Origin: Sminthopsis crassicaudata
Lineage: Eukaryota
Direction: 5' to 3'
Assembly: GCF_048593235.1 (NCBI RefSeq)
Contig: NC_133618.1
Span: 578,912,889 to 578,976,888 of the forward strand
DNA: 64,000 bases
Shown here in pieces: positions 37,387 to 60,462 of this stretch. A program made the position numbers and the translations under genes. The notes under the pieces are model-generated. The model worked only from the letters and a program-made list of their open reading frames with translations. It searched no databases and was not told the origin of the DNA. How positions within the stretch are numbered: position 1 is the stretch's first letter; every line of letters begins with the position of its first letter.

Positions 37387-37803
37387 CTAGGAACCCAGGA
37401 AAGCCATCTCTAGGTTGTCCGGCCCAGTCCCGTTGCCCACTATCCCCTGGGCCCACTTGTGTAGCCGGCTGTAGAGCGGGAAGCCCTGGTTTTCACGGTA
37501 CAGCGAGACGCCAGTGATGGCGTTCCACTGGGGCCTCGGCTGGGTCCCCTCCACAACAAACTCCTCAAGCATCTCCTTGTCATCCTTGTTCAGGGCCACA
37601 AAGCCGAAGAAACGGCGCACGTTGTTGGCAGCCAGCACTCGGGAGTGCACCTCCGCCGTTCTCTGGAACAGCTGGGACTCGTTGGCGCGGTACTGGGCCC
37701 AGTAGGCCTCTTGGCGGTAGCCCAGCGGGGAGCAGCAGTGCTTCAGACATTTGGTGAGGAAGACCAGGACAGCCACCACACCGATCAGCAGCCACCCGAA
37801 AAG
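37387..37803 (-). CDS. CALHM2: CALHM2 last coding exon
   Basis: Acceptor ...CTCTCCTGCCCAG|CTT; LFGWLLIG...YSRLHKWAQG...stop. Confidence 0.95.
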   Translation of the reverse strand, partial: LFGWLLIGVVAVLVFLTKCLKHCCSPLGYRQEAYWAQYRANESQLFQRTAEVHSRVLAANNVRRFFGFVALNKDDKEMLEEFVVEGTQPRPQWNAITGVSLYRENQGFPLYSRLHKWAQGIVGNGTGPDNLEMAFLGS

Positions 37804-40800
37804 CTGGGCAGGAGAGAAGAAGCGGGTGAGCTTTCCCTCCTCCCCACAGAGAGCAGCCAACTCCCCTCCCCACTCTGAGCAAGGGCAGGGGAAAGGAGGG
37901 GAGACCAGCCCGGCCAGAGAGAGGGAGTCTAGTCCTGACTTGACAATAAATAATAACTGCACGCCAGCCACTCTGGAGAGCAATTTGGAACTATGCCCAA
38001 AGGGCCATAAAACTGCTGGCCCTTTGATCCAGCCAGTCTCCACTAGCCTGCATGCTAAAGAGATCATAAAAAAGGAAAGGGACCCACATGTGCAGGAGTG
38101 TCTGTGGCAGCCCTTTGTGTAGTGGCCAGGAACTGGAAACTGAGTGGATGCCCATGGGGAATGGCTGAATAAATTGTGGTATATGAATATTATGGAATAT
38201 TATTGTTCTGTAAGAAATGATGAGAAGTTGTTCTAGAAGAAATGATTATGGAGTATTGATGAACTGATTTCAAAAAAGTCTGCTAAGACTTGCATGAACT
38301 GATGCTGAGTGAAATAAACAGAACTAGAACATCGTACACAGTTACAGCAAGACTATGGGATCAGCTGTGGCAGATTTAGCTCTTCTCAGTCACATAGTGA
38401 ACCAAGACAATTGTGATACACTGGGATGGAATCAGCATCCCGAGAAAGAGCTGTGGAGAATGAATGCAGATTGAAGCATACTATTTTCACATTTTCCCCC
38501 CTTCTTATGGTTTTTTCCCTTTTGTTCTGATTTTCCTCTCACAGCATGACTAATACGGATGGATACAGAGTTGACACGATTGTACATGTATAATCTATAT
38601 CAGATTGCTCTCTTGAGGAGAGGGAAGGGAGGAAGAAAAAAATCTTACAAAAATGAATGGTGAAAACTATCTTTACATGTAATTGGAAAAAATAAAACAC
38701 TATAAAAATAAATAGCTGCATTACAATAAAGTCAATTGTCTTCTCTGGATCTATTTGCTCTGTGGAATGAGAATTGGAATAGATGTTCTCTTAAGTCCCT
38801 CACAATTTGTAATATGTCATGCTTTCATTTTCTGTCTTCTGCTCAGTCTGCATTTTCTCCTCATCTCTCCATCTCTGCAAGTGTCTGTCCATTTTTCTCC
38901 TGAACACCCATTCCTTTCTGTCTCCTTGTGTCTGCCCATTTGTTTTGCCTGTCCTCTTCATCACAGTGAAAGGTAAAAAGGATCTTAGAAGGCCTACCCA
39001 TTTTACAGATGATTAAGTTGGTGTCTAGACAGGTTAAGTGACGTTACTTTAGAGCCCCCAGCTAGTAAGTATTGGAGGAAGGATTTGAACTCAGATCTTT
39101 CAGCATTTAGTACAAGTACCTGGTTTGTAATAAGTGTTCCTGACTCCAAGGCCAGTATTAGGCTGCATCTCCAACTGGTGCTTTTAAAGACCTTTAAGAG
39201 AAAATTATGTGCTTCCCACTCCTTGGCTTTGCCAGTTTCCCTTTCTCCTTTCTAATAAGGCTTCTATTTTTTTTTTCCTCATCATCAGTTCATTACCAGA
39301 TAATGCTTTTTGGGATTCTGTAGCCCAATTTGTGGGTAACTAGATGACACAGTGGATAGAGAGTTGAATGCCAGGCTTGGAATGAGAAAGACTCATCTTC
39401 CTGAGTTCAAATCTAGTCAGACACTAACTGGGGGATCCTGGTAAGCCATTTAATCCTGTTTGCCTCAGTTTCCTCATCTATAAAATGAGTGGAAAAGTAA
39501 ATGGCAAATCACAATAGTGTCTTTGTTAAGAAAACCCCAAAGGGATCACAAAGATTCAGACATGACTGAATTTCTTTCCCAATGCAAGAATCCTCCTCTC
39601 TACTGCATCTCTGATTACCTGTGCTCATCAGACCTTTTTGAACACCTCCTGGAATGAGTAGCTCACTACCTAGGAGATAGCCACTTTACACTGTCAGACA
39701 ACTCTTGATTCTTGCAAAGGTCTTATAGGCTAGGCTGCATTAGGCTGATCACACCCACCGGGGTTAGCCCTTCAGCCTAGTTAAGTCTAGGCTAAGGGTC
39801 CATCTGAGCCACAGTCAGAGGTCAGAACATGGACGGAGTCAGAACCAAAAGAGGCATCAAGGAACAGAGATCAGAATGCAGATCTTGGAGTGTGAAAAGG
39901 CCTGGATTTAAATTTTGCCTCTGAGACATACCAGCCTCCCCCCACCCCAAGAACATTTCTAAATTTAAGTGGGGAGAGTTCACTATGCTAATAAAATCAC
40001 AGATCCAATTTTTTATAAAGGAAGATGGACTATGCCCAAAGTGAGTCATGAGATCAAGATGTAATTGAAGAATAGCAATTTTCCATGCTCTTTAAAATTA
40101 TTGGGAACTTCCAATGGTCTTGTGAATGCAGAGAACCATCTGCACCCAGAGAGAGGACTGTGGGAACTGAGTGTGGATCACAACATAGCATTCTCACTCT
40201 TTTTGTCTGTTTGCTGGTGTTCTGTCTTTCTTGTTTTTTTTCCTTTCTGATCTGATTTTTCTTGTGCATCATGATAATTGTGGAAATATGTATAGAATAT
40301 TGTTTAACATATATCAGATTACTTGCTATGTTGGGGAGGAATGGGGGCAAGGGAGGGAAAAAATTTGGAGCATAAGGGTGAATGTTGAAAATCTATGCAT
40401 AAAATTAAAAATAAATAAATAAATAAATAAAATTGGAAAAAAAAAATTATTGGGAACCTGAACCATAAACATGGCTTCATTAGCACTGGGTATTACCCAC
40501 TTCTAACACTGAGAATTCTTATTCTGGGGTTGGAGCAGTCTTTCTGTTCTCTCCTCTTCACCCAAGAGGAGCAAAGCTGGAGCCTTTCCAGTTTTCCTTT
40601 CCTACCTTGAGCTGGGGACGGGGAGAGAGGATGGTTTAGGATGTGATCTTTTCTCTCCCACTGCCCTCCCCTCCTTTCTGGAGATTTAATTAGCCAGTTA
40701 AACAACTGGTTTACTTATTATTATTTAAATTAAAAACAACTGGTTTGATTTTTATTTCATGTAGGGACCATATAATGACCAGGTCTACAGAGTCTCTTTA

Positions 40801-41814
40801 TTTCGGAGTTTATATCAGAAAAGTTAATAAAAGCATCACTGGGCTGCTAGGTGGCTCAGTGGATAGAGTACCAGCCCTGAAGTCAGGAGGACTTGAGGTC
40901 AGACACTTAATACTTAATAGCTGTGTGACCCTGGGCAAGTCACTTAACCCCAATTTCCTCAGCAAAAAATAAATCATATTATCATAGCTCAGAGCCCCCA
41001 ATTAGAAAAACTGATAAGGGGAGCTCCTGGGCTCCTGCTTGTGACTCCTAAGACTCACACCAATGAAGGACCTCCCCAGTAAAAAAGGCAGGGGGGAGGG
41101 GGGGATCAGCAGCCTCTAAGGTTCTTTCTAGCTCTAACCTTGAGCTTTCCTGGGTAAAGACTCTGGTCATCCCTCCAGCAGCATTCCCAAAGGCCGTGAG
41201 AGAAGCCATCCTGGAGCCTTTGCCCGCCCACCTCCACGACCCAGGAGATCTTGGCTTACCTGGGACTCATACTTGAGTCTCCGGCTCACCTCCTCCTGGA
41301 AGCTGGACAGGTTTGCCGGGGCCTCCCTGCAGGGGAACTTGGCCAGCACCTCGATGGCGTGGTCCTGGGGGAAACCCCCCTTCTCATCTGTCAGCGAGGA
41401 GGGGTCCACAAACTCGCTGAGAGCGCAGACGTAGGCCTCTCCTCTGAGCAGAGAGAGGACGGACCAGGTGACGGGGGCCACGGCCGCCCGGCCCAGGATG
41501 GAGCTCAGGAGCAGGAAGTTGGGGGCCGCCGAGCAGTTCTTGGCCCGGCGGAGCTGACACTCGGCCACCAGGTTCCAGGTGTGGGTGTTGAGGATGACGC
41601 CTATGAGGAAGAGAGCCAGGGCGGGAACCCCAATGGCGGTCAGCCCGTAAATGTAGTTCCTGGTGGGGGAGCAAGGGCAGTGGAAGGCCACCACGGAGAA
41701 CAGTTCCTGGCTCCCCACCGTGCCCAGAGCCACCAGCCCGTTGAAGATCATCACGTCCTTACTCTTGAAAAAGAGCGACAGGAAGCGGAAATTCTCCACG
41801 ATCAGGGCGGACAT
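37387..41814 (-). CDS. CALHM2: Calcium homeostasis modulator 2, join(41814..41260, 37803..37387), 323 aa
   Basis: MSALIVENFRFLSLFFKSKDVMIFNGLVALGTVGSQELFS...LKYESQ / LFGWLLIGVVAVLVFLTKC...EMAFLGS matches human CALHM2. 555+417 nt. E37, F39, R124 and the NLS sequon are retained. GT-AG intron 41259-37804. Confidence 0.97.
38131..38715 (+). mobile_element. L1 3' end, marsupial type, antisense to CALHM2
   Basis: GAACTGGAAACTGAGTGGATGCCCA...GGAATGGCTGAATAAATTGTGG... through an A-rich tail. Confidence 0.8.
39334..39570 (+). mobile_element. Mar1/CORE-SINE
   Basis: tRNA-like head, CORE (GCCTCAGTTTCCTCATCTATAAAATGAG), RTE-type tail (AAGAAAACCCCAA...GACATGACTGAA). Confidence 0.8.
40109..40442 (+). mobile_element. 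5'-truncated young L1 with 15-bp TSD
   Basis: AAAATTATTGGGAAC at 40094-40108 and 40443-40457; (AAAT)n/A tail. Confidence 0.9.
40841..40969 (+). mobile_element. WSINE1-type SINE
   Basis: GGGCTGCTAGGTGGCTCAGTGGATAGAGTACCAGCCCTGAAGTCAGG...GGGCAAGTCACTTAACCCCAATT..AAAAAA. Confidence 0.8.
41260..41814 (-). CDS. CALHM2: CALHM2 first coding exon (exon likely extends to an acceptor at 41840)
   Basis: ATG in ATCACCATG context; donor CAG|GTAAG at 41259; acceptor CCCTTCCTTTCTGCAG| at 41841. Confidence 0.95.
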
Positions 41815-43949
41815 GGTGATGACTGGAGGAGACCGTCAGCCTGCAGAAAGGAAGGGTGAATTCAGGGATTGAAATCCTGGTGGGACTGGGGAAAGGGACC
41901 AGATGTACCGGGGCCATGCGATCACCCAGAATGGGTGATCCCGAGCAAGTCACTGCTACTCGACAAGCCTTGATATCACCATCTGTGAAATGGGAGACAA
42001 CGCTTACCCATATACCAATGTCTTCTTTATATAGAGCTTCAAAAATACGCTCCTCTCCTCACAAAGAACCTGAGAGGCAGGGAGCATGGCAATGGACTCA
42101 GAGGTGCTGGGGGTCCTGAGCTCTTGCAGCCTAATAGAGAACACTGCTAATTGAGACCAAGGCCACTTGTGCCTTTCTTTGTATCTCCAGCATTTAGCAC
42201 AGGGCTGGATACAGAAGGCACTTGCATTCAGGCTGGTGACTGGAAAACACTATTTTAGTGATGGGGTCTCCCAGCCCCTGCTCTCCTTGGGGCAGAACCA
42301 GGATGTGAGTTCTCAGAGGCTGAATCCACCGTTCCCTTCTCCTCCCCCCAATATGTGAGCTGGGTAGAATTCTGGAGAGGGAGAAGGAAGGCCACTTCCA
42401 ATGAATTGTAAAATGAAGGGGACCAGAGTTCTCTCTTCCTGGGATGGGGCTCAGATAATTGGCACCTGGGCAGAGCTGACAAGATTTTCAGTTCTATTTT
42501 GAACAAAATGAGCAGCGTCAGTCAGGAGACAGCTTCAGCTTCCTCTCCCCCAGAGGCTGCCTTCCCTGATCCCCATCCAGAACTTGGCCCCATCTCCATC
42601 CCAAAATGGGGGAAACACGGCCTCCTGGCTCAGGACAAAGTATCAATGAGAATCTGCTTAGCTCCAGCCCAGTGCTTTACTTCTTAGAACTCTATCTGTA
42701 AGTTAAGGCCCCCAAATTGGGGTGAGTGAGGGAATAAAGTAAGGTTTGGGGACGTTTTGTCCTCTGTATAAAGGCTCAGCAATGGGTCCTATTCTGGGGG
42801 GATTCCTCGGGCTTTAATGTTTTGTGTGTATGAACATGACAAAAACCAACAAATAAATATCTCAACACACAAAGAACAAGAAGGGACCATAGATTGCACA
42901 AGGAACGAAATTTCTGCAAAAATCTACAGAGCTTTGGTACATATAGCCTTAAATAAATACACCTTTATTTATTGCATTTAATTAGGTAGCATCAAAATTG
43001 CTCTACATTCCTTTTAAAACTTCATTCTGTTTTATTCTATGAATTTAAAAACATTTCGTTGATGATCTTTTGGGAAGTCACATCCATCGGTACCCACTAA
43101 ACTATTCCCCCATAGATGTCAGTGTTTGGAGTAAATATACTGTCTAACAAACTGTAAGCTTTAGGCTCGGGCTGCAGGAACTCCTGAGGCTGTAAGTGTT
43201 CATGACACCTTCCTCCGGTCCGGTGGTCTGGGGGGTAGGAAGAGGCTCTTCCTCAGGTTCTGTAAAGCCCAGGGAGAACGGATTTGTGCTTCCTAGAAGA
43301 CAGAAGTGCCAGGGGCCCGAGGGGAGGCAGTGCTGTGGGTACAAAGCACTCCCACCCACACTCATCCCACTTCTGGACACCCACACCTACCTCCCCGAGG
43401 GAAGCCCTTCAATTTTGGGGACGAGAACAACCATAACAAAAAAAGATGCGGATTCACAGGCTCCTTCGGGGCTCCCTTACATGCCCTCCGCGCTCCCCGT
43501 CCCCAGTGCAGTCCAGCGCCACAGACAAGGCGATCCTGGCCTTCAGAGGCCCTCTCTCTGAAAAGGAGTTTCTGGCTCTGTGAGAGGGGCGGGGGAGGAT
43601 AATGGGCCACAGACATCAGAGGATTCCTACTCCCCTTCCCCCAGCCCCATTTGGCTCCTGCCCCTCTCCAGGCCAGCAGAGCCTCTGGCCCTCTCTCTGG
43701 GGAGGCTCAGTTTCACCCGGACAGGGTGCAGACCATCTGACAAATGGAGCTGGACAAGCGCTAGCCCTCGGGCAGGGAGGGACCGGGACAAGGACCACAT
43801 GCGTCCCCTCGGTGGGGAGGGGCCAGGGAGGTTCTCTCCGGGGTCGAGAAGCGTCTTTTGGGGGTCTGGACCTTTTCTTCATGCCCTGGCCGGCCCACTC
43901 CTCCCCCTTTGTCCCCTCCTGGCCGCCGGTGCCCCAGTCTTTCCCAGTG

Positions 43950-50638: not shown

Positions 50639-51112
50639 TCACACTTTGCTGAAGTAGGTGGCCACCTCCTTCCTCAGGACAGGGGCCGGCTCAGGCCTGG
50701 GATCCCCGCCAGCCCACCCGTTCCCCAGGAGCAGCTCCTCCTGGTCCAGCCGCAGCGGAGGCTTGCAGTCGTGCCAGCTTTTGAGCAGTTGGTTCATGGT
50801 GCCCTGGTCAGTAATGCCATGGAGCTTTCCTCGCTCCTCCTCGGTGCCCTCGGCAGGGGCCTTGGCCGGTCCTGGGTGGGAGTGACCCAGCGTCAGGTCT
50901 TGGTTCATGGCTTCGAAGAATTGTTGGATGCAAACCTTGGCGAAGGCCTTGGCATGCTCCGTGCAGGTCTCGTCGAAGAGCTTGCGCTCGATGTCGATGT
51001 AGTGGGACCAGTACTTGCTCTTGAGAAAAGCAGCCTGGGTGAAGCAGGGGCGGACTGCCCGCACGAGAAATGCCAGGAGGGTGGTCAGCAGCACAAAGGT
51101 CCAGCCCAGAGC
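50639..51112 (-). CDS. CALHM1: CALHM1 coding exon 2
   Basis: Acceptor CCCCACAG|GCT; [25 protein letters not shown]... Confidence 0.95.
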
Positions 51113-53334
51113 CTGTGGGGACCCAAGGGGAGGAGTGAGTGGGGGCTCCTTCCTACCTGCAGGCCCCTGGCACTGCAGTGCCGGGCAGAGAAAGCAGACT
51201 TGCAATTTCTGCATCTGCAAAATGGGAATAAAACCAGCTTTTGCCCTTTACAGATGAGAAAGACTCAGGCATGCTAGGCTTGGAGTCAGGAAGACCAAAG
51301 TTCAAATCCACATTTTCTAGTTTTCTCAACTGCAAAGGAGAAATAATAATAGAACCTACCTCCCAGGATTGTTATGAGGATCAACTGAAATAAGATGTGT
51401 AAAGTCTTTGACAGTGCCTAGCCCATAATAGGTACCTAATAAATGCCTGTTCCCTTCCTTCCTTCTTATAGATAAAGAATCAGACTATATGAATATATTA
51501 TTATTATTATTGTTATTTCACATTAATAGGATCTTCCCAAACCACCTTCCCTAACTAATCCAGGACTCAAAGTTCCCTCTCCTCCACTCTTAATGTCTCT
51601 ACAGTATGGCTCATTAGAAATTTAAGCAGGCATTGTCCAAGATTGTTAGTGATCTTATACCTCTTTTTAGTCTCCCCAGCTAGACTTTAAGCTCCCAGAA
51701 AACTTAATATTCATACTTGTGTCTCTCATAACAGGGCTTCTTACTTTTTCCACTCGGGACCTCTTTTTGCCCTGGGAAATTTTTCTCAACACTGGGTATA
51801 TAGGTTTAAAAATAGATTTACAAATCAAACATTTACTTATAATAAATTGTAAAGAAATTTATTTTAAGATAATTCTTTGGTATACATATAGTTTTACCAT
51901 TTATTAAAGTTGAAATCAAATTTGCCTACTAATAAGATGGATGTAATTATTTTTATATAAAGTATTAAATCTTGGCAGAATATTTGAAACCTTTTATTGT
52001 CAATTTTTTTGCTACCCTCAATTCAGTGATGCAAGCGCATATCAGGTTGCAACCCACAGTTTAAGAAGCTTTGTCACTTATGTCCTACAATAGGGCTTAA
52101 TATATCATTTTTGATTTGTGATCCTGTTATACCTTTCTAGAGAGAACCATCTTCATTTTCTAAATGGAAAAATTGTAGCTGCATCGGTGACTTGTCTAAA
52201 GGTATTTAAATGTTGGGGGACTCGATTCCATATAGGATCCATTAAGCTCTAAACTCTGGTTTTACAGAGTTTTTCCTTTACTCTTCTCCCCAAATACCAT
52301 CTTACTCTACTCTAAGCAGAAATGAGATCTGATTTCCTTGAAGGGAAATATCGAAGGCTAAAATATATTAAATCCTACTGTTTCTATTCAAGAACCCACA
52401 TCAGCTCCTAGTTCTCACTCAGACTTGCTGGGTTCTATGGGTTCTATTTGCCTGGGAAATGAATCCAAATGGCTCAGAACCATGTTCCGTCTTCCTCAGC
52501 CCTTCCTCCCCCTTTCCAGGTTCCCTAGTTTTAAAGGATGCAAATCTTTCAAAATCACAATAATCCTTCTTCGGACAGACTGGGACACCAGTGGGTGCTG
52601 TAGAGGCCCCACATTATATCCCAGGCCTGTTACTAGCCTAGCCGGGCAGGGTCCTGAATTGGCAGAAGGGGTTTCAGTGTCAGGCCATAGGGAAGGAAGG
52701 ACAATGGATAAATTGTTTTCTTTGAGGAGCTGATGGCCCAGTGGAAGAAGCCGGGAAGTAAGGGGAACACCTGAGAGCTCACCTGGGAGATGCAGCGCAA
52801 ATATCTGACGGCCACTTCTCGGGCAAGCAGCCAGTCCCCATCATAGATCTCCTGGCAGGGGATGCGAGCCAGCAGTCTGACCACCTCCTGCTGGGCCAGG
52901 CCGGGGACGTGGCTGGCGTTTCCCAGGGTGGCCACGGGCACGGCGGTACAGAAGGCACACAGGAAGCACTTGCCATCCAGCAGGGTGACAGCAACCCAGA
53001 CCACAGGCGCAATCAGCGCCCGCTGGGCCATGGAACAGAACATGTAGCGGAGCACGGCGGGGTCCTTATGCCTCTGGCCGGTGGGCCGCTTCCATTCCTC
53101 AGCCAGCATGGAGATGTTATTGTTCATCACCAGTCCCAGGAGGAAGAGCACCAGGGGAGGGGCCAGAAGGATGCCCCCGCTGTAGGCCAGGTTGTACCCA
53201 GGCAGGCAGGGGCAGCTGAAGTCAAAAGCCGAGTACATCTGGGCACTGGCCAGAGCCATGATCCCACAGATGCCATTCATGAAGGACTCCTGGTTAGACT
53301 GCAAAAACTGAAATATCATCCGGAACTTATCCAT
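50639..53334 (-). CDS. CALHM1: Calcium homeostasis modulator 1, join(53334..52783, 51112..50639), 341 aa
   Basis: [39 protein letters not shown]...YLRCISQ / [15 protein letters not shown]...[11 protein letters not shown] matches human CALHM1. 552+474 nt. Equivalents of human N72, D121 and the N140 sequon are retained. Confidence 0.97.
51732..52073. mobile_element. hAT-Charlie-type MITE (old marsupial family)
   Basis: TIR-like CAGGGCTTCTTA(A)CT / AGTTTAAGAAGCTTTG; TSD decayed. Confidence 0.65.
52783..53334 (-). CDS. CALHM1: CALHM1 coding exon 1
   Basis: Donor CAG|GTGAG at 52782. Confidence 0.95.
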
Positions 53335-57379: not shown

Positions 57380-57971
57380 CCCTTAATAGTATTTTAGATT
57401 TTCTAATTACATGTAAAGATAGTTTGCAACATTTACTTTGATAATCTGATGTACAATCATGTTAAATAGATTTCCACATCAATTATATTGTAAAAGAAGA
57501 ATCACAACAGAAGGGAAAAATTATGAGAAAGAAAAAAGCAAGACAAAAAAAGTGAAATTAGTACACTATGATCAGCATTCAGACACTTTAATTCTTTCTT
57601 TGGGTGTGGTTAACCTTTCTATCATGAGTTTTTTGGAATTGTCTTAAATCATTGTATTGCTGAGAAGATCAAAATCTATCAAAGTTAATCATCATACAAT
57701 GTTGCTGTTACTGTGCTCCTGGCTCTGCTCACTTCACTCAGCATCAGTTCATTGTAAGTCTTTCCAGGTTTTTCTGAAATCTATCTACTCATCATTTCTT
57801 ATGGAATAATAATATTCCATTTCATTCATATACTTCAATTTGTTCAGCCATTCCACAATTGATGGGCATCCTCTTGATTTCCAATTCTTTGTCACCACAA
57901 AGAGAGCTGCTATACACATTTTTGTATCTGCAGGTCCTTTTCCACTTTTTAAGATTTCTTGGGGATACAGA
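57380..57971 (-). mobile_element. L1 3' fragment abutting LTR copy A
   Basis: ORF2 C-terminus on - (KMCIAALFVVTKNWKSRGCPSIVEWLNKL..MNEMEYYYSIRND). Confidence 0.85.
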
Positions 57972-58420
57972 TGTGTGGTACGGAAATGGTGAGGGGTCAC
58001 CATTTAATAAAAAAGTTGGAGAGATCTCTAGAGTAAAGCAAAGTTCATAGTACATTCTCGAGAGAAGGGCGTCACACCCTTCGAGCAGACAATGGAAGAG
58101 AGGAAGCACCTCCTGTGGGCAGGACAGCCCCTTTAATCCCTAACGCAAAACACCCCCTCCCACCACTGACCCTCATCCTCATTGGCTGAGAGTCTTACAT
58201 TCTAAACTCGAGATCTGCCCATGAAATTGAACTTGACCAATAAGTACATAGTTGCCCATATTTGGCTGAAATAGGGAGATGATATCATGGGAGGGGAACG
58301 CAATTATGCCCTTGACTCGATCTATGTTCACAGTCCTTCAGGCCTACTCAAACTCTGAAGTAGATGAAGCCTTACTCGATTTTCACAACTGTCTTAACAG
58401 ATCTCACCTCATCTCATTCA
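57972..58420 (-). mobile_element. Solo ERV LTR, copy A (449 bp), 4-bp TSD CAGA
   Basis: TG...CA ends; CAGA at 57968-57971 and 58421-58424; reverse complement of copy B. Confidence 0.9.
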
Positions 58421-58489
58421 CAGAACTCATCTAGGGAATACATATATAATAGAAGTCTGATGTCTAGAATGAAGGTGGTGGTAAGTAAG

Positions 58490-59100
58490 ACTCTGGAACC
58501 CTGGTCAGATCACACCTGCGTTTTGTTCCAGGGGCCACATTTTAGCAGTCACATTGACAAGCTGGAATGTATCCAAAGGAGTGTGATCAGGATATTGGAG
58601 GGATGAAAAACCAGTGCAATATGAGATCTAGATGAAGGTAAAGGGTCATTTAGCTCAAAGAAGAAAAGATTGGAGGGGAGAGGGTCATAAATCCTAAGAT
58701 CTAGTGGAAGCTAGAAAGGACCTTAGAAAACATTTAATTTAATACCCTCATTTTATAGACAAGGGAGATGAAGCCCAGAATGGCTATTACATAATCAGGG
58801 TGATGTAAAGCAGCTAAGGTTCTCTGACTCCAAATAGGATAATTTTATGTTATTGCAAGATGTTATTTTCTCTAGTCTCAAATATTGAAGGAATTGTTAT
58901 ATAGATCAGAAATTAGATCTATTCTTTGTGGCTTTAGAGGGCAGAACTAAGAACATCAGGGAAAAACAATAGGTGAATCAGGTTTTGTTTCAACATAAGG
59001 AAATCGCTTCCTAACATTTAAAATGGCATAGATGTTTTATTAGGGAGTTCTCCATCACTAAGGACATTCAATTGGGAGGTGTTTGGTCATCTATCTATGT
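58490..59100 (+). mobile_element. L3/CR1 LINE remnants in the spacer between the LTRs
   Basis: PHFSSHIDKLECIQRSVIRILEG resembles the CR1 RT C-terminus (PHFKKDIDKLERVQRRAT..). Confidence 0.7.
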
Positions 59101-59129
59101 GATGGAAACTAGAATGCACAGTGAATATA

Positions 59130-59340
59130 GCTCTGGCCATAGACTTGGGACAAACTGAGTTCAAATCTATCCTCAGTTACTTATTAGGATTGTAAAACAC
59201 TTTAACAACATTATGCAACCCTGGGAAAATTATTTAATCCATCATTTTCTTCAAATACAATAAATTAATAGTAAATTAAAATAGGGATAATAATAGCACC
59301 TACCTCTCAGGATTGTTTTAAGGATAAAATTATATATATA
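59130..59340 (+). mobile_element. MIR SINE remnant
   Basis: GAGTTCAAATCT..CCTCAG...ATAATAGCACCTACCTCTCAGGATTGTT. Confidence 0.6.
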
Positions 59341-59456
59341 AAGCATTTTTCAAACTATAAAGTACTATGCAAATTCTATTATTATTTGTTATTATCATTA
59401 TAGTAGATGGAATCTATGTACTGTATGGAAAATTTGACTAACTTCTCAAATACCTT

Positions 59457-59879
59457 TGAATGAGATGAGATCTTTCAAGACAGTTGTGAAAATCGAGTAA
59501 GGCTTCATCTACTTCAGAGTTCGAGTAGGCCTGAAGGACTCTGAAGGGCATTGCCTTCCCCTCCTATGACATCTCCCTATTTCATCCAAATATGGGCAAC
59601 TATGTACTTATTGGTCAAGTTCAATTTCATGGGTAGATCTCGTGTTTAGAATGTAAGACTCTCAGCCAATGAGGATGAGGGTCAGTGGTGGGAGGGGGCG
59701 TTTTGCGTTAGGGATTAAAGGTGCTGTCCTGCCCACAGGAGGCGCTTCCTCTCTTCGATAGTCTACTCGAAGAGTGGGACGCCCTTCTCGCGAGAATGTA
59801 CAATAAACTTTGCTTTTCTCTAGAGCTCTCTCCAGTTTTTTTATTAAATGGTGACCCTTCACCATTTCCGTACCACACA
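59457..59879 (+). mobile_element. Solo ERV LTR, copy B (423 bp), 4-bp TSD CCTT
   Basis: TG...CA ends; CCTT at 59453-59456 and 59880-59883; CCAAT, GC box, TATA-like ATTAAA, AATAAA 59802-59807. Confidence 0.9.
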
Positions 59880-60462
59880 CCTTCCAAATCTGAGATCTGA
59901 TTCCATTAAAATCAAGCTCTGGGCTTCACCCTATGGTCTGGGGTAATGGGGCTTGATTTAAATAGAAATCAGTCTTTGGGAGAAGATGAGAATTAGAATT
60001 GTAATGGTTTTCATCTTCCTGTCACCCAAATCTGGAACTATGAAGAAACTTGGAAAATAAGGTCTAGAAATGCTTTTAATGGACTAGGAAGATTTGAAGA
60101 CAAGAGCTAAATTTTAGCACTTAGAAAGACTGGGTTGACAGCTTTCCCTTCCTCCCCAGCATGATTCTTCATGGGTCTTTTGCTCAGAGGGCAAAGTCCC
60201 TAAATCTATGAACCTCTGCTTCACTTCAATTACTGAACAGCAGCTCAGTATATAGGGTTCAGAACTGGAGTTATGATTTCATTGGCATAAGAAACTTCCA
60301 GAGGAGGATGTCTCCTTATCTAACACAACTGTCACCTTCTCTGAAATGTATAGCCTTAGAGAGTTTGACTGGACAACTGGAAAGTCAATTGACTTGCCTG
60401 GGGTCACCCACATTATGGATGATGGTGAGATTCTTTCAAGGACATTGCCATGCTGAAGAGAA

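Follow-up and report, generated by a model that had tools for sequence, protein, structure and literature searches.

Here we present an analysis of two solo long terminal repeats (LTRs) belonging to one class I endogenous retrovirus (ERV) family, which lie head-to-head in a 64,000-nucleotide stretch of Sminthopsis crassicaudata DNA (the window), situated on C2, one of the 8 contigs of a 3.24-Gb genome. The pair probably represents two separate insertions, likely brought together by the clustering of this family over distances of up to about 3 kb, and as a pair it is probably unselected. Close ERV pairs form a class in which this locus is nothing out of the ordinary, and the clustering across the family, together with a bias in the side on which the younger copy lies, is more notable than the locus itself. 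All pair counts rest on samples of about 260 loci besides the window, roughly an eighth of the family.

Anatomy and age of the LTR pair

The left solo LTR (449 bp, positions 57972-58420 of the window, minus strand) is an older copy of the class I ERV family and points toward CALHM1; the right one (423 bp, 59457-59879, plus strand) is very young, belongs to a younger subfamily, has its AATAAA intact and points away from that gene. Their 5' ends face each other, i.e. the arrangement is divergent (head-to-head). Read on the plus strand, the left copy is bounded by the target site duplication (TSD) CAGA at 57968-57971 (outer) and 58421-58424 (inner), and the right copy by CCTT at 59453-59456 (inner) and 59880-59883 (outer). 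On re-reading, the coordinates, strands, TG...CA ends, both TSDs and the 1036-bp gap given in the preliminary description proved exact; its figure of about 94% arm identity corresponds to 94.1% without gaps, and its 26 bp of indels to the difference in length (449 vs 423), composed of alignment gaps of 15, 3 and 3 bp and, by subtraction, a remaining 5 bp at the 5' end. The sense strand of both LTRs was fixed from proviral relatives, in which the primer binding site (PBS) follows, and the polypurine tract precedes, the same ends; neither a PBS nor a polypurine tract was found beside either window LTR. Both copies have the TG...CA ends, the TSD and the absence of internal sequence alongside by which solo LTRs are recognized. 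The reading of the pair as two independent integrations, each now a solo LTR, is borne out by the separate unswapped TSDs, the different subfamilies and the non-proviral, single-copy spacer, and the unswapped TSDs likewise agree with the claim that the spacer has not inverted in this haplotype. Recombination between LTRs is the textbook route to solo LTRs, and it would have produced both window copies.

The preliminary description called both LTRs young, which holds for the right one, whose nearest relative in the panel is 99.8% identical, and fails for the left one, which is older (96.0%). Columns that tell the young from the older group place each arm with its own subfamily (14/14), and none of nine rare letters of the left arm is found in the right one; on these two grounds there is no gene conversion between the arms. 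The left LTR would have been inserted first and the right one later. Presence across species, which had been proposed for ordering the insertions, could be read for the left LTR: in a contig of a related species (run X16, record 3) the left flank is joined to the spacer and the left LTR is absent, and from this empty site it follows that flank and spacer are true neighbours and that the left insertion is lineage-specific. That run is, however, rich in LTR-like contigs. Run X17 covers the spacer and is uninformative as to the LTR, and run X7, the RNA nature of which is guessed, gave one spacer contig at a depth of 4.6, such contigs giving neither strand nor start; among the runs on record as RNA, none was listed as holding the window stretch. 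At the 5' end of the right LTR (59457-59475) 5 bp are missing from a short repeat, the same being seen in one of 29 young relatives (L007), and this common deficit reflects either slippage or a shared source.

The spacer (58421-59456, unstranded) is host DNA with old diverged repeat fragments. Its description as ancient L3/MIR DNA rather than proviral sequence stands in its second part, as none of eight proviral internal regions (8/8) matches it; the names L3 and MIR are presumed from inspection by eye. The first 576 bases of the spacer have one full-length place in the genome and 34 short matches at 74-90%, the pattern expected of old interspersed repeats, and the orthologous DNA differs by about 7% in two other organisms. 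To the left, the LTR was inserted at the edge of an old high-copy repeat (57383-57967, plus strand; about 72% identical to other copies), which we take to be a LINE-like 3' end.

The pair is intergenic, between CALHM1 and a CALHM paralogue. The CALHM1 coding region (50639-53334, minus strand; coding stretches 52633-53334 and 50639-51247, with approximate exon edges) was identified by a PDB match (E 6.6e-111), and its ATG at 53334 is 4,638 bp away from the left LTR, in accord with the claimed position upstream of that gene. The paralogue toward whose 3' end the right LTR is directed resembles CALHM genes by match, lies about 5.2 kb away and is presumably CALHM3, judging from gene order. The nearest CpG-island-like DNA is likewise about 5.2 kb from the pair. 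The complete gene order is PDCD11-like exons (5714-33673, plus strand), CALHM2-like (37387-41835, minus strand), CALHM1 and, beyond the window, the paralogue; the names PDCD11 and CALHM2 are presumptive.

Class and proviruses of the ERV family

Assignment to class I, previously suggested by the 4-bp TSDs, is supported both by these and by gamma-type pol and env domains in the proviruses. The right LTR has many relatives at 99%, often paired 5.7-6.9 kb apart. All six proviruses fetched whole carry a PBS after the 5' LTR and a polypurine tract before the 3' LTR, with 0-3 differences between the two LTRs, and we take the family PBS to be identical to the proline-type PBS of MLV. LTR lengths in the family range from 423 to 485 nt. 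Among 156 solo-like copies the TSD is an exact 4-bp repeat in 116, has one mismatch in 25, fits only as 5 bp in 3 and has at least two mismatches in 12; the last group, in which the collapse of direct pairs into hybrid solo LTRs was probed, includes several eroded provirus ends.

In each of three proviruses scanned, RNase H, integrase, MLVIN_C and TLV_coat domains were detected in the open stretches as they stand, and the best PDB matches of the proviral ORFs were to MLV/XMRV RNase H (the RNase H being closest to MLV p80) and to the C-terminal domain of MLV integrase. Search for reverse transcriptase (RT) revealed no motif in any of the six proviruses and no RT Pfam match in any of the three. 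The young proviruses sampled measure 6.2-6.9 kb and have their coding broken into short open stretches, and from these sequences the young copies of the family look non-autonomous. In the youngest proviruses (L064, L065, L067-L070) the LTRs are near-identical, the genes broken, an RT match lacking and the internal regions 2-5% apart, and these represent a recent spread of defective copies.

The family is like MLV-type class I elements in its TG...CA ends, 4-bp TSD, polypurine tract, RNase H near that of MLV p80, and MLVIN_C and TLV_coat domains, and unlike them in that its young proviruses are broken and without RT match and in that its integrase tail has an equivalent of W390 but not the full BET-binding consensus. 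The 17 tails compared follow the pattern W-T/I-V-E-D-R/K-G/E/D-D-L-Q/K-L-H-K/L-R-R, with the tryptophan aligned with MLV W390 kept in them; the motif described for gammaretroviral integrase tails, W-X3-R/K-S/T-X2-PLK-I/L-R-I/L-X-R (PMC4121521), is absent in full from all 17, agreement being confined to the W and a basic-hydrophobic run. Prediction of a complex between the host BRD4 ET domain and the natural integrase tail returned a score of 0.16, which counts neither for nor against binding.

Three clades of dasyurid class I ERVs, MEGrv 1-3, with LTRs of 281-486 nt, have been reported (Harding et al. 2024, PMC11334065). They share with our family the amplification of class I ERVs in dasyurid genomes, and their range of LTR lengths brackets that of the family. 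Eight short words from the window LTR and flanking signals had 0 matches in the MEGrv 1-3 LTRs within the part of that source considered, which is a weak comparison, the text being set in 10-letter blocks. A third LTR family (582 bp; L077:965-1546 and L090:3877-4456) has an end that resembles by eye the MEGrv 1 LTR published in the same part.

Spacing, orientation and age order of family pairs

Depending on the word searched, we obtained 1,280 exact matches of one 23-mer and 2,114 matches of a 5' 22-mer with up to two mismatches, and 76 of 84 carriers of the former also bore the latter. Arithmetic from these counts gives about 2,340 LTRs in about 2,000 loci, or one per 1.62 Mb; as 5 of 31 copies in a sampled interval were missed by the seed words and listed in later searches, the family is somewhat larger than this.

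For the discovery sample the first 100 listed places per pattern on contig C1 were merged into 131 regions, of which 120 (0-211 Mb) were fetched together with five earlier ones. The sample comprises 1,093,110 bases with 139 LTR pieces, which gave 116 loci after 23 merges by hand, each joining provirus mates or the parts of an interrupted LTR. Loci L119 and L120 (C1:88.86 and 89.83 Mb), counted separately, belong to one segmental duplication (97-99% identity over at least 10 kb), in which one solo LTR is carried twice. We found 13 pairs with a gap of up to 3 kb vs 0.21 expected; by distance, 12 neighbours lay at 0-1 kb, followed by 8, 5 and, at 3-4.5 kb (317 kb), 0, and none of 20 fixed-step 10-kb controls contained a full LTR. 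The independent sample of 144 loci was assembled from 58 loci (two window loci excluded, three loci also in the C1 sample), 66 loci (from 76 centred on old copies, after exclusion of 8 already sampled and 2 duplicates) and 20 loci taken in list order, with 2, 1 and 2 neighbours, respectively. These 5 neighbours compare with 0.28 expected (18-fold, P 1e-5); over both samples the excess of close pairs above even spacing is about 18- to 60-fold. The replication is below the discovery, a neighbour within about 1.5 kb being present in 5/144 loci vs 10/108 C1 seeds counted by hand (Fisher P 0.06).

The excess in both samples upholds the earlier suggestion of a local integration hotspot. For the whole genome, pooling gives about 60 pairs (34-96) with a gap within 1.5 kb, about 10 of them head-to-head (about 1-46), and the locus, one among these estimated 34-96, is of little consequence in itself. 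Among 279 positions listed genome-wide, non-proviral neighbours closer than 12 kb were limited to the window pair and to three others, one convergent (4.6 kb), one divergent (9.1 kb) and one on the same strand (10.9 kb). The comparison with family spacing recommended in the preliminary description, made on these samples, finds that the window pair is not unique and that pairs exceed the even-spacing rate; the view that it is rare or selected is not supported, there being 18 other close pairs, two of them head-to-head, in the loci sampled. Its identity is unremarkable as well, since 26% of 300 random draws of family pairs reach 94%.

By orientation, the 18 pairs outside the window are 11 convergent, 5 direct and 2 head-to-head, the last being the rarer class. 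One of the two head-to-head pairs (L147, C1:118718831-118720059) has a gap of 360 bp, 90.7% identity and both members solo with TSDs, and the other (L291, C4:326.25 Mb) a gap of 1309 bp and 92.3% identity. The former lies about 1 kb from CpG-island-like DNA. Inverted and direct pairs stand at 13:5 (P 0.10), and at 10:2 within 1.5 kb (P 0.04), and this sample does not bear out the premise of a normal depletion of close inverted repeats. Among the inverted pairs, seven equal or surpass that of the window in closeness and three in likeness, L306 (962-2445; C5:237.74 Mb) doing both. It consists of the 3' LTR of a provirus and a solo LTR, convergent, 609 bp apart and 97.2% identical, and would, by its sequence, be a better hairpin or dsRNA candidate than the window pair. 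For Alu elements the inverted:direct ratio was given as 0.076 at gaps of up to 24 bp, 0.898 at 51-205 bp and 0.955 overall after correction (Cook et al. 2011, PMC3215922), which leaves a depletion of only about 5-10% beyond 50 bp. Alu pairs are comparable with ours as one repeat family closely spaced in four orientations, and differ in that inverted Alus are fewer than direct ones, as far as the part of that source considered goes, while our LTR family has 13 inverted vs 5 direct pairs.

Of the orderable pairs, 15 of 17 have the younger copy downstream of the older one (P 0.001), or 15 of 18 with a tie counted against (P 0.004), where convergent pairs are downstream and divergent ones upstream by construction and age order is informative only in four direct pairs. 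In all four of these the younger copy is downstream. It was from the C1 sample that the idea of a downstream bias arose post hoc; taken by itself, the independent sample has 4/5. Two same-direction proviruses 2.3 kb apart (L072/L073, C1:4223018-4239486) both have the TSD CTAT, with unrelated flanks and LTRs at 97.9%. In the literature searched, chiefly open-access texts, no description of kb-scale or directional clustering of ERV LTRs was found, and the parts of PMC10924933 and PMC3558390 considered contain nothing on pair spacing.

Origin of the pair and causes of the clustering

Pure chance would require nothing more than about 2,000 evenly placed loci, among which one close head-to-head pair in 3.24 Gb is not unlikely: uniform spacing predicts 0.32 head-to-head and 0.64 inverted pairs per genome with a gap of up to 1036 bp. 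Against this, the seven other inverted pairs at least as close were met in roughly an eighth of the family, and even spacing is rejected by both samples for the family, though not for the single pair, and we regard chance as an improbable explanation. The same comparison implies that the apparent rarity of close inverted LTR pairs under even spacing is no ground for inferring selection. It is also quite unlikely that the pair is a selected module, in which CALHM1 would have the left LTR as its upstream promoter or enhancer and antisense RNA toward the next CALHM gene would come from the right LTR. In its favour, the left LTR is directed toward CALHM1 from 4.6 kb and retains CCAAT and TATA-like words, with its AATAAA, kept in 24 of 29 older relatives, altered to TATGAA, and the right LTR is directed at the 3' end of the paralogue. 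However, the right LTR is too young and the left one lineage-specific, nothing in the sequence ties the two together, and the same anatomy occurs at other loci, all of which speaks against the selected cassette once proposed. The left LTR alone might possibly act as a CALHM1 promoter or enhancer, but such an effect of a single LTR would not turn the pair into a unit.

The further roles put forward for the pair, i.e. a divergent double promoter, an invertible segment, a cruciform or a source of dsRNA for ADAR or siRNA, found no support either. An inverted-repeat search returned the LTR pair as the longest inverted repeat of the window, with arms of 313 and 86 nt at 94%, and in yeast widely spaced, diverged inverted Alus rearrange when single-stranded (PMC10164571, in the part considered). 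Nevertheless, the longest perfect arm measures 55 bp across a 1,036-bp loop, which would be poor cruciform material, and neither homogenised arms nor swapped TSDs, the marks of a palindrome or invertible cassette, were observed, a conversion tract being absent at 14/14 columns. The promoters moreover point apart; as transcription from divergent LTRs runs outward on both sides, dsRNA formation would call for a third transcript that reads through. Inverted family pairs also persist (13/18), one of them at 97% and 609 bp, and an active rearrangement or hairpin substrate is very unlikely. Hardly credible at all is an assembly artefact or a single aberrant integration with fused or inverted provirus ends. 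No listed contig extends over the whole left junction region, the one same-species contig (X2, record 23) taking in the spacer and reaching 30 letters into the left LTR, a single letter below the bridging threshold, but two different perfect TSDs, two subfamilies, a single-copy spacer and the lack of PBS and polypurine tract alongside stand against such an origin, as does the related species' contig across the empty site. Fusion at primer sites in particular is ruled out by the separate TSDs and the absence of a PBS.

According to the explanation we prefer, two separate insertions drawn together by clustering, the family would have a tendency to land no more than about 3 kb from its earlier copies, and the window pair would be a by-product. 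Most likely, germ-line integration would be directed into promoter-like open chromatin, made by the older LTR and/or a nearby host CpG-island promoter. A shared target sequence was rejected as the cause, as 15 spacers compared have only short matches among them and none with the window spacer, and so was a general junk-yard effect, SINE and L1 ends being flat with distance from the LTRs. CpG-island-like DNA is present in the fetched flank of 5/13 pairs vs 5/103 single regions (P 0.0015) vs 1/20 controls, and 8/13 pairs are without it; neither mean GC nor mean CpG distinguishes pair regions from single ones (P 0.47 and 0.26, respectively). MLV places 19% of its integrations within 2 kb of a transcription start site and 19% within 2 kb of a CpG island (PMC4121521). 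Kb-scale concentration of insertions and the enrichment of CpG-island-like DNA near family pairs are reminiscent of BET-tethered integration of MLV as treated in the part of that source considered, while the differences are that the pattern of our family comes from germ-line copies that are fixed and differ in age, that it has a downstream bias and an inverted excess, and that its tethering motif is non-canonical.

Host-promoter or other local open chromatin may be the cause of clustering, a reading to which we give slightly less than an even chance. That the older LTR attracts later insertions is a more tentative option, which would explain the downstream bias and the 8 island-free pairs; the 66 loci centred on old copies, with a single neighbour within 1.5 kb, are not what it predicts. 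Other causes, e.g. preferential fixation beside an already silenced LTR, are somewhat doubtful still. Under either the host-promoter or the older-LTR reading the window pair is a by-product. It is conceivable, if rather unlikely, that old LTRs of the family seed their own hotspots in a directional and self-reinforcing manner: a germ-line-active LTR would open the chromatin just downstream, and later viruses of the family would land 0.2-3 kb behind it over millions of years. Same-direction pairs would then be lost by LTR-LTR recombination or selection, leaving an excess of convergent pairs; the members of such pairs would send antisense transcripts into one another, from which silencing RNA could be nucleated. 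Under such self-seeding the window pair would, with the same reservation, be the uncommon upstream case. If real, this directional rule would mean that a resident LTR shapes the landing sites of later germ-line retroviruses, and would account for the origin of compound ERV loci and antisense arrangements.

ERV hotspots of the deer mouse are similar in that neighbouring ERVs of different ages arose by independent insertion, and dissimilar in that, in the part of the report considered, they are 100-kb windows rich in KZNF genes, while the excess in our LTR family is gone by about 3 kb (PMC10089650). Near family loci lie seven full copies of a second LTR family, about 515-585 bp long (L075, L081, L111, L113, L148, L149, L151), two of them within 20 bp of a family LTR, and the controls contain no full copy, a difference which is not significant alone. 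The arrangement at L148/L149 suggests that the ERV family is nested there inside this second family.
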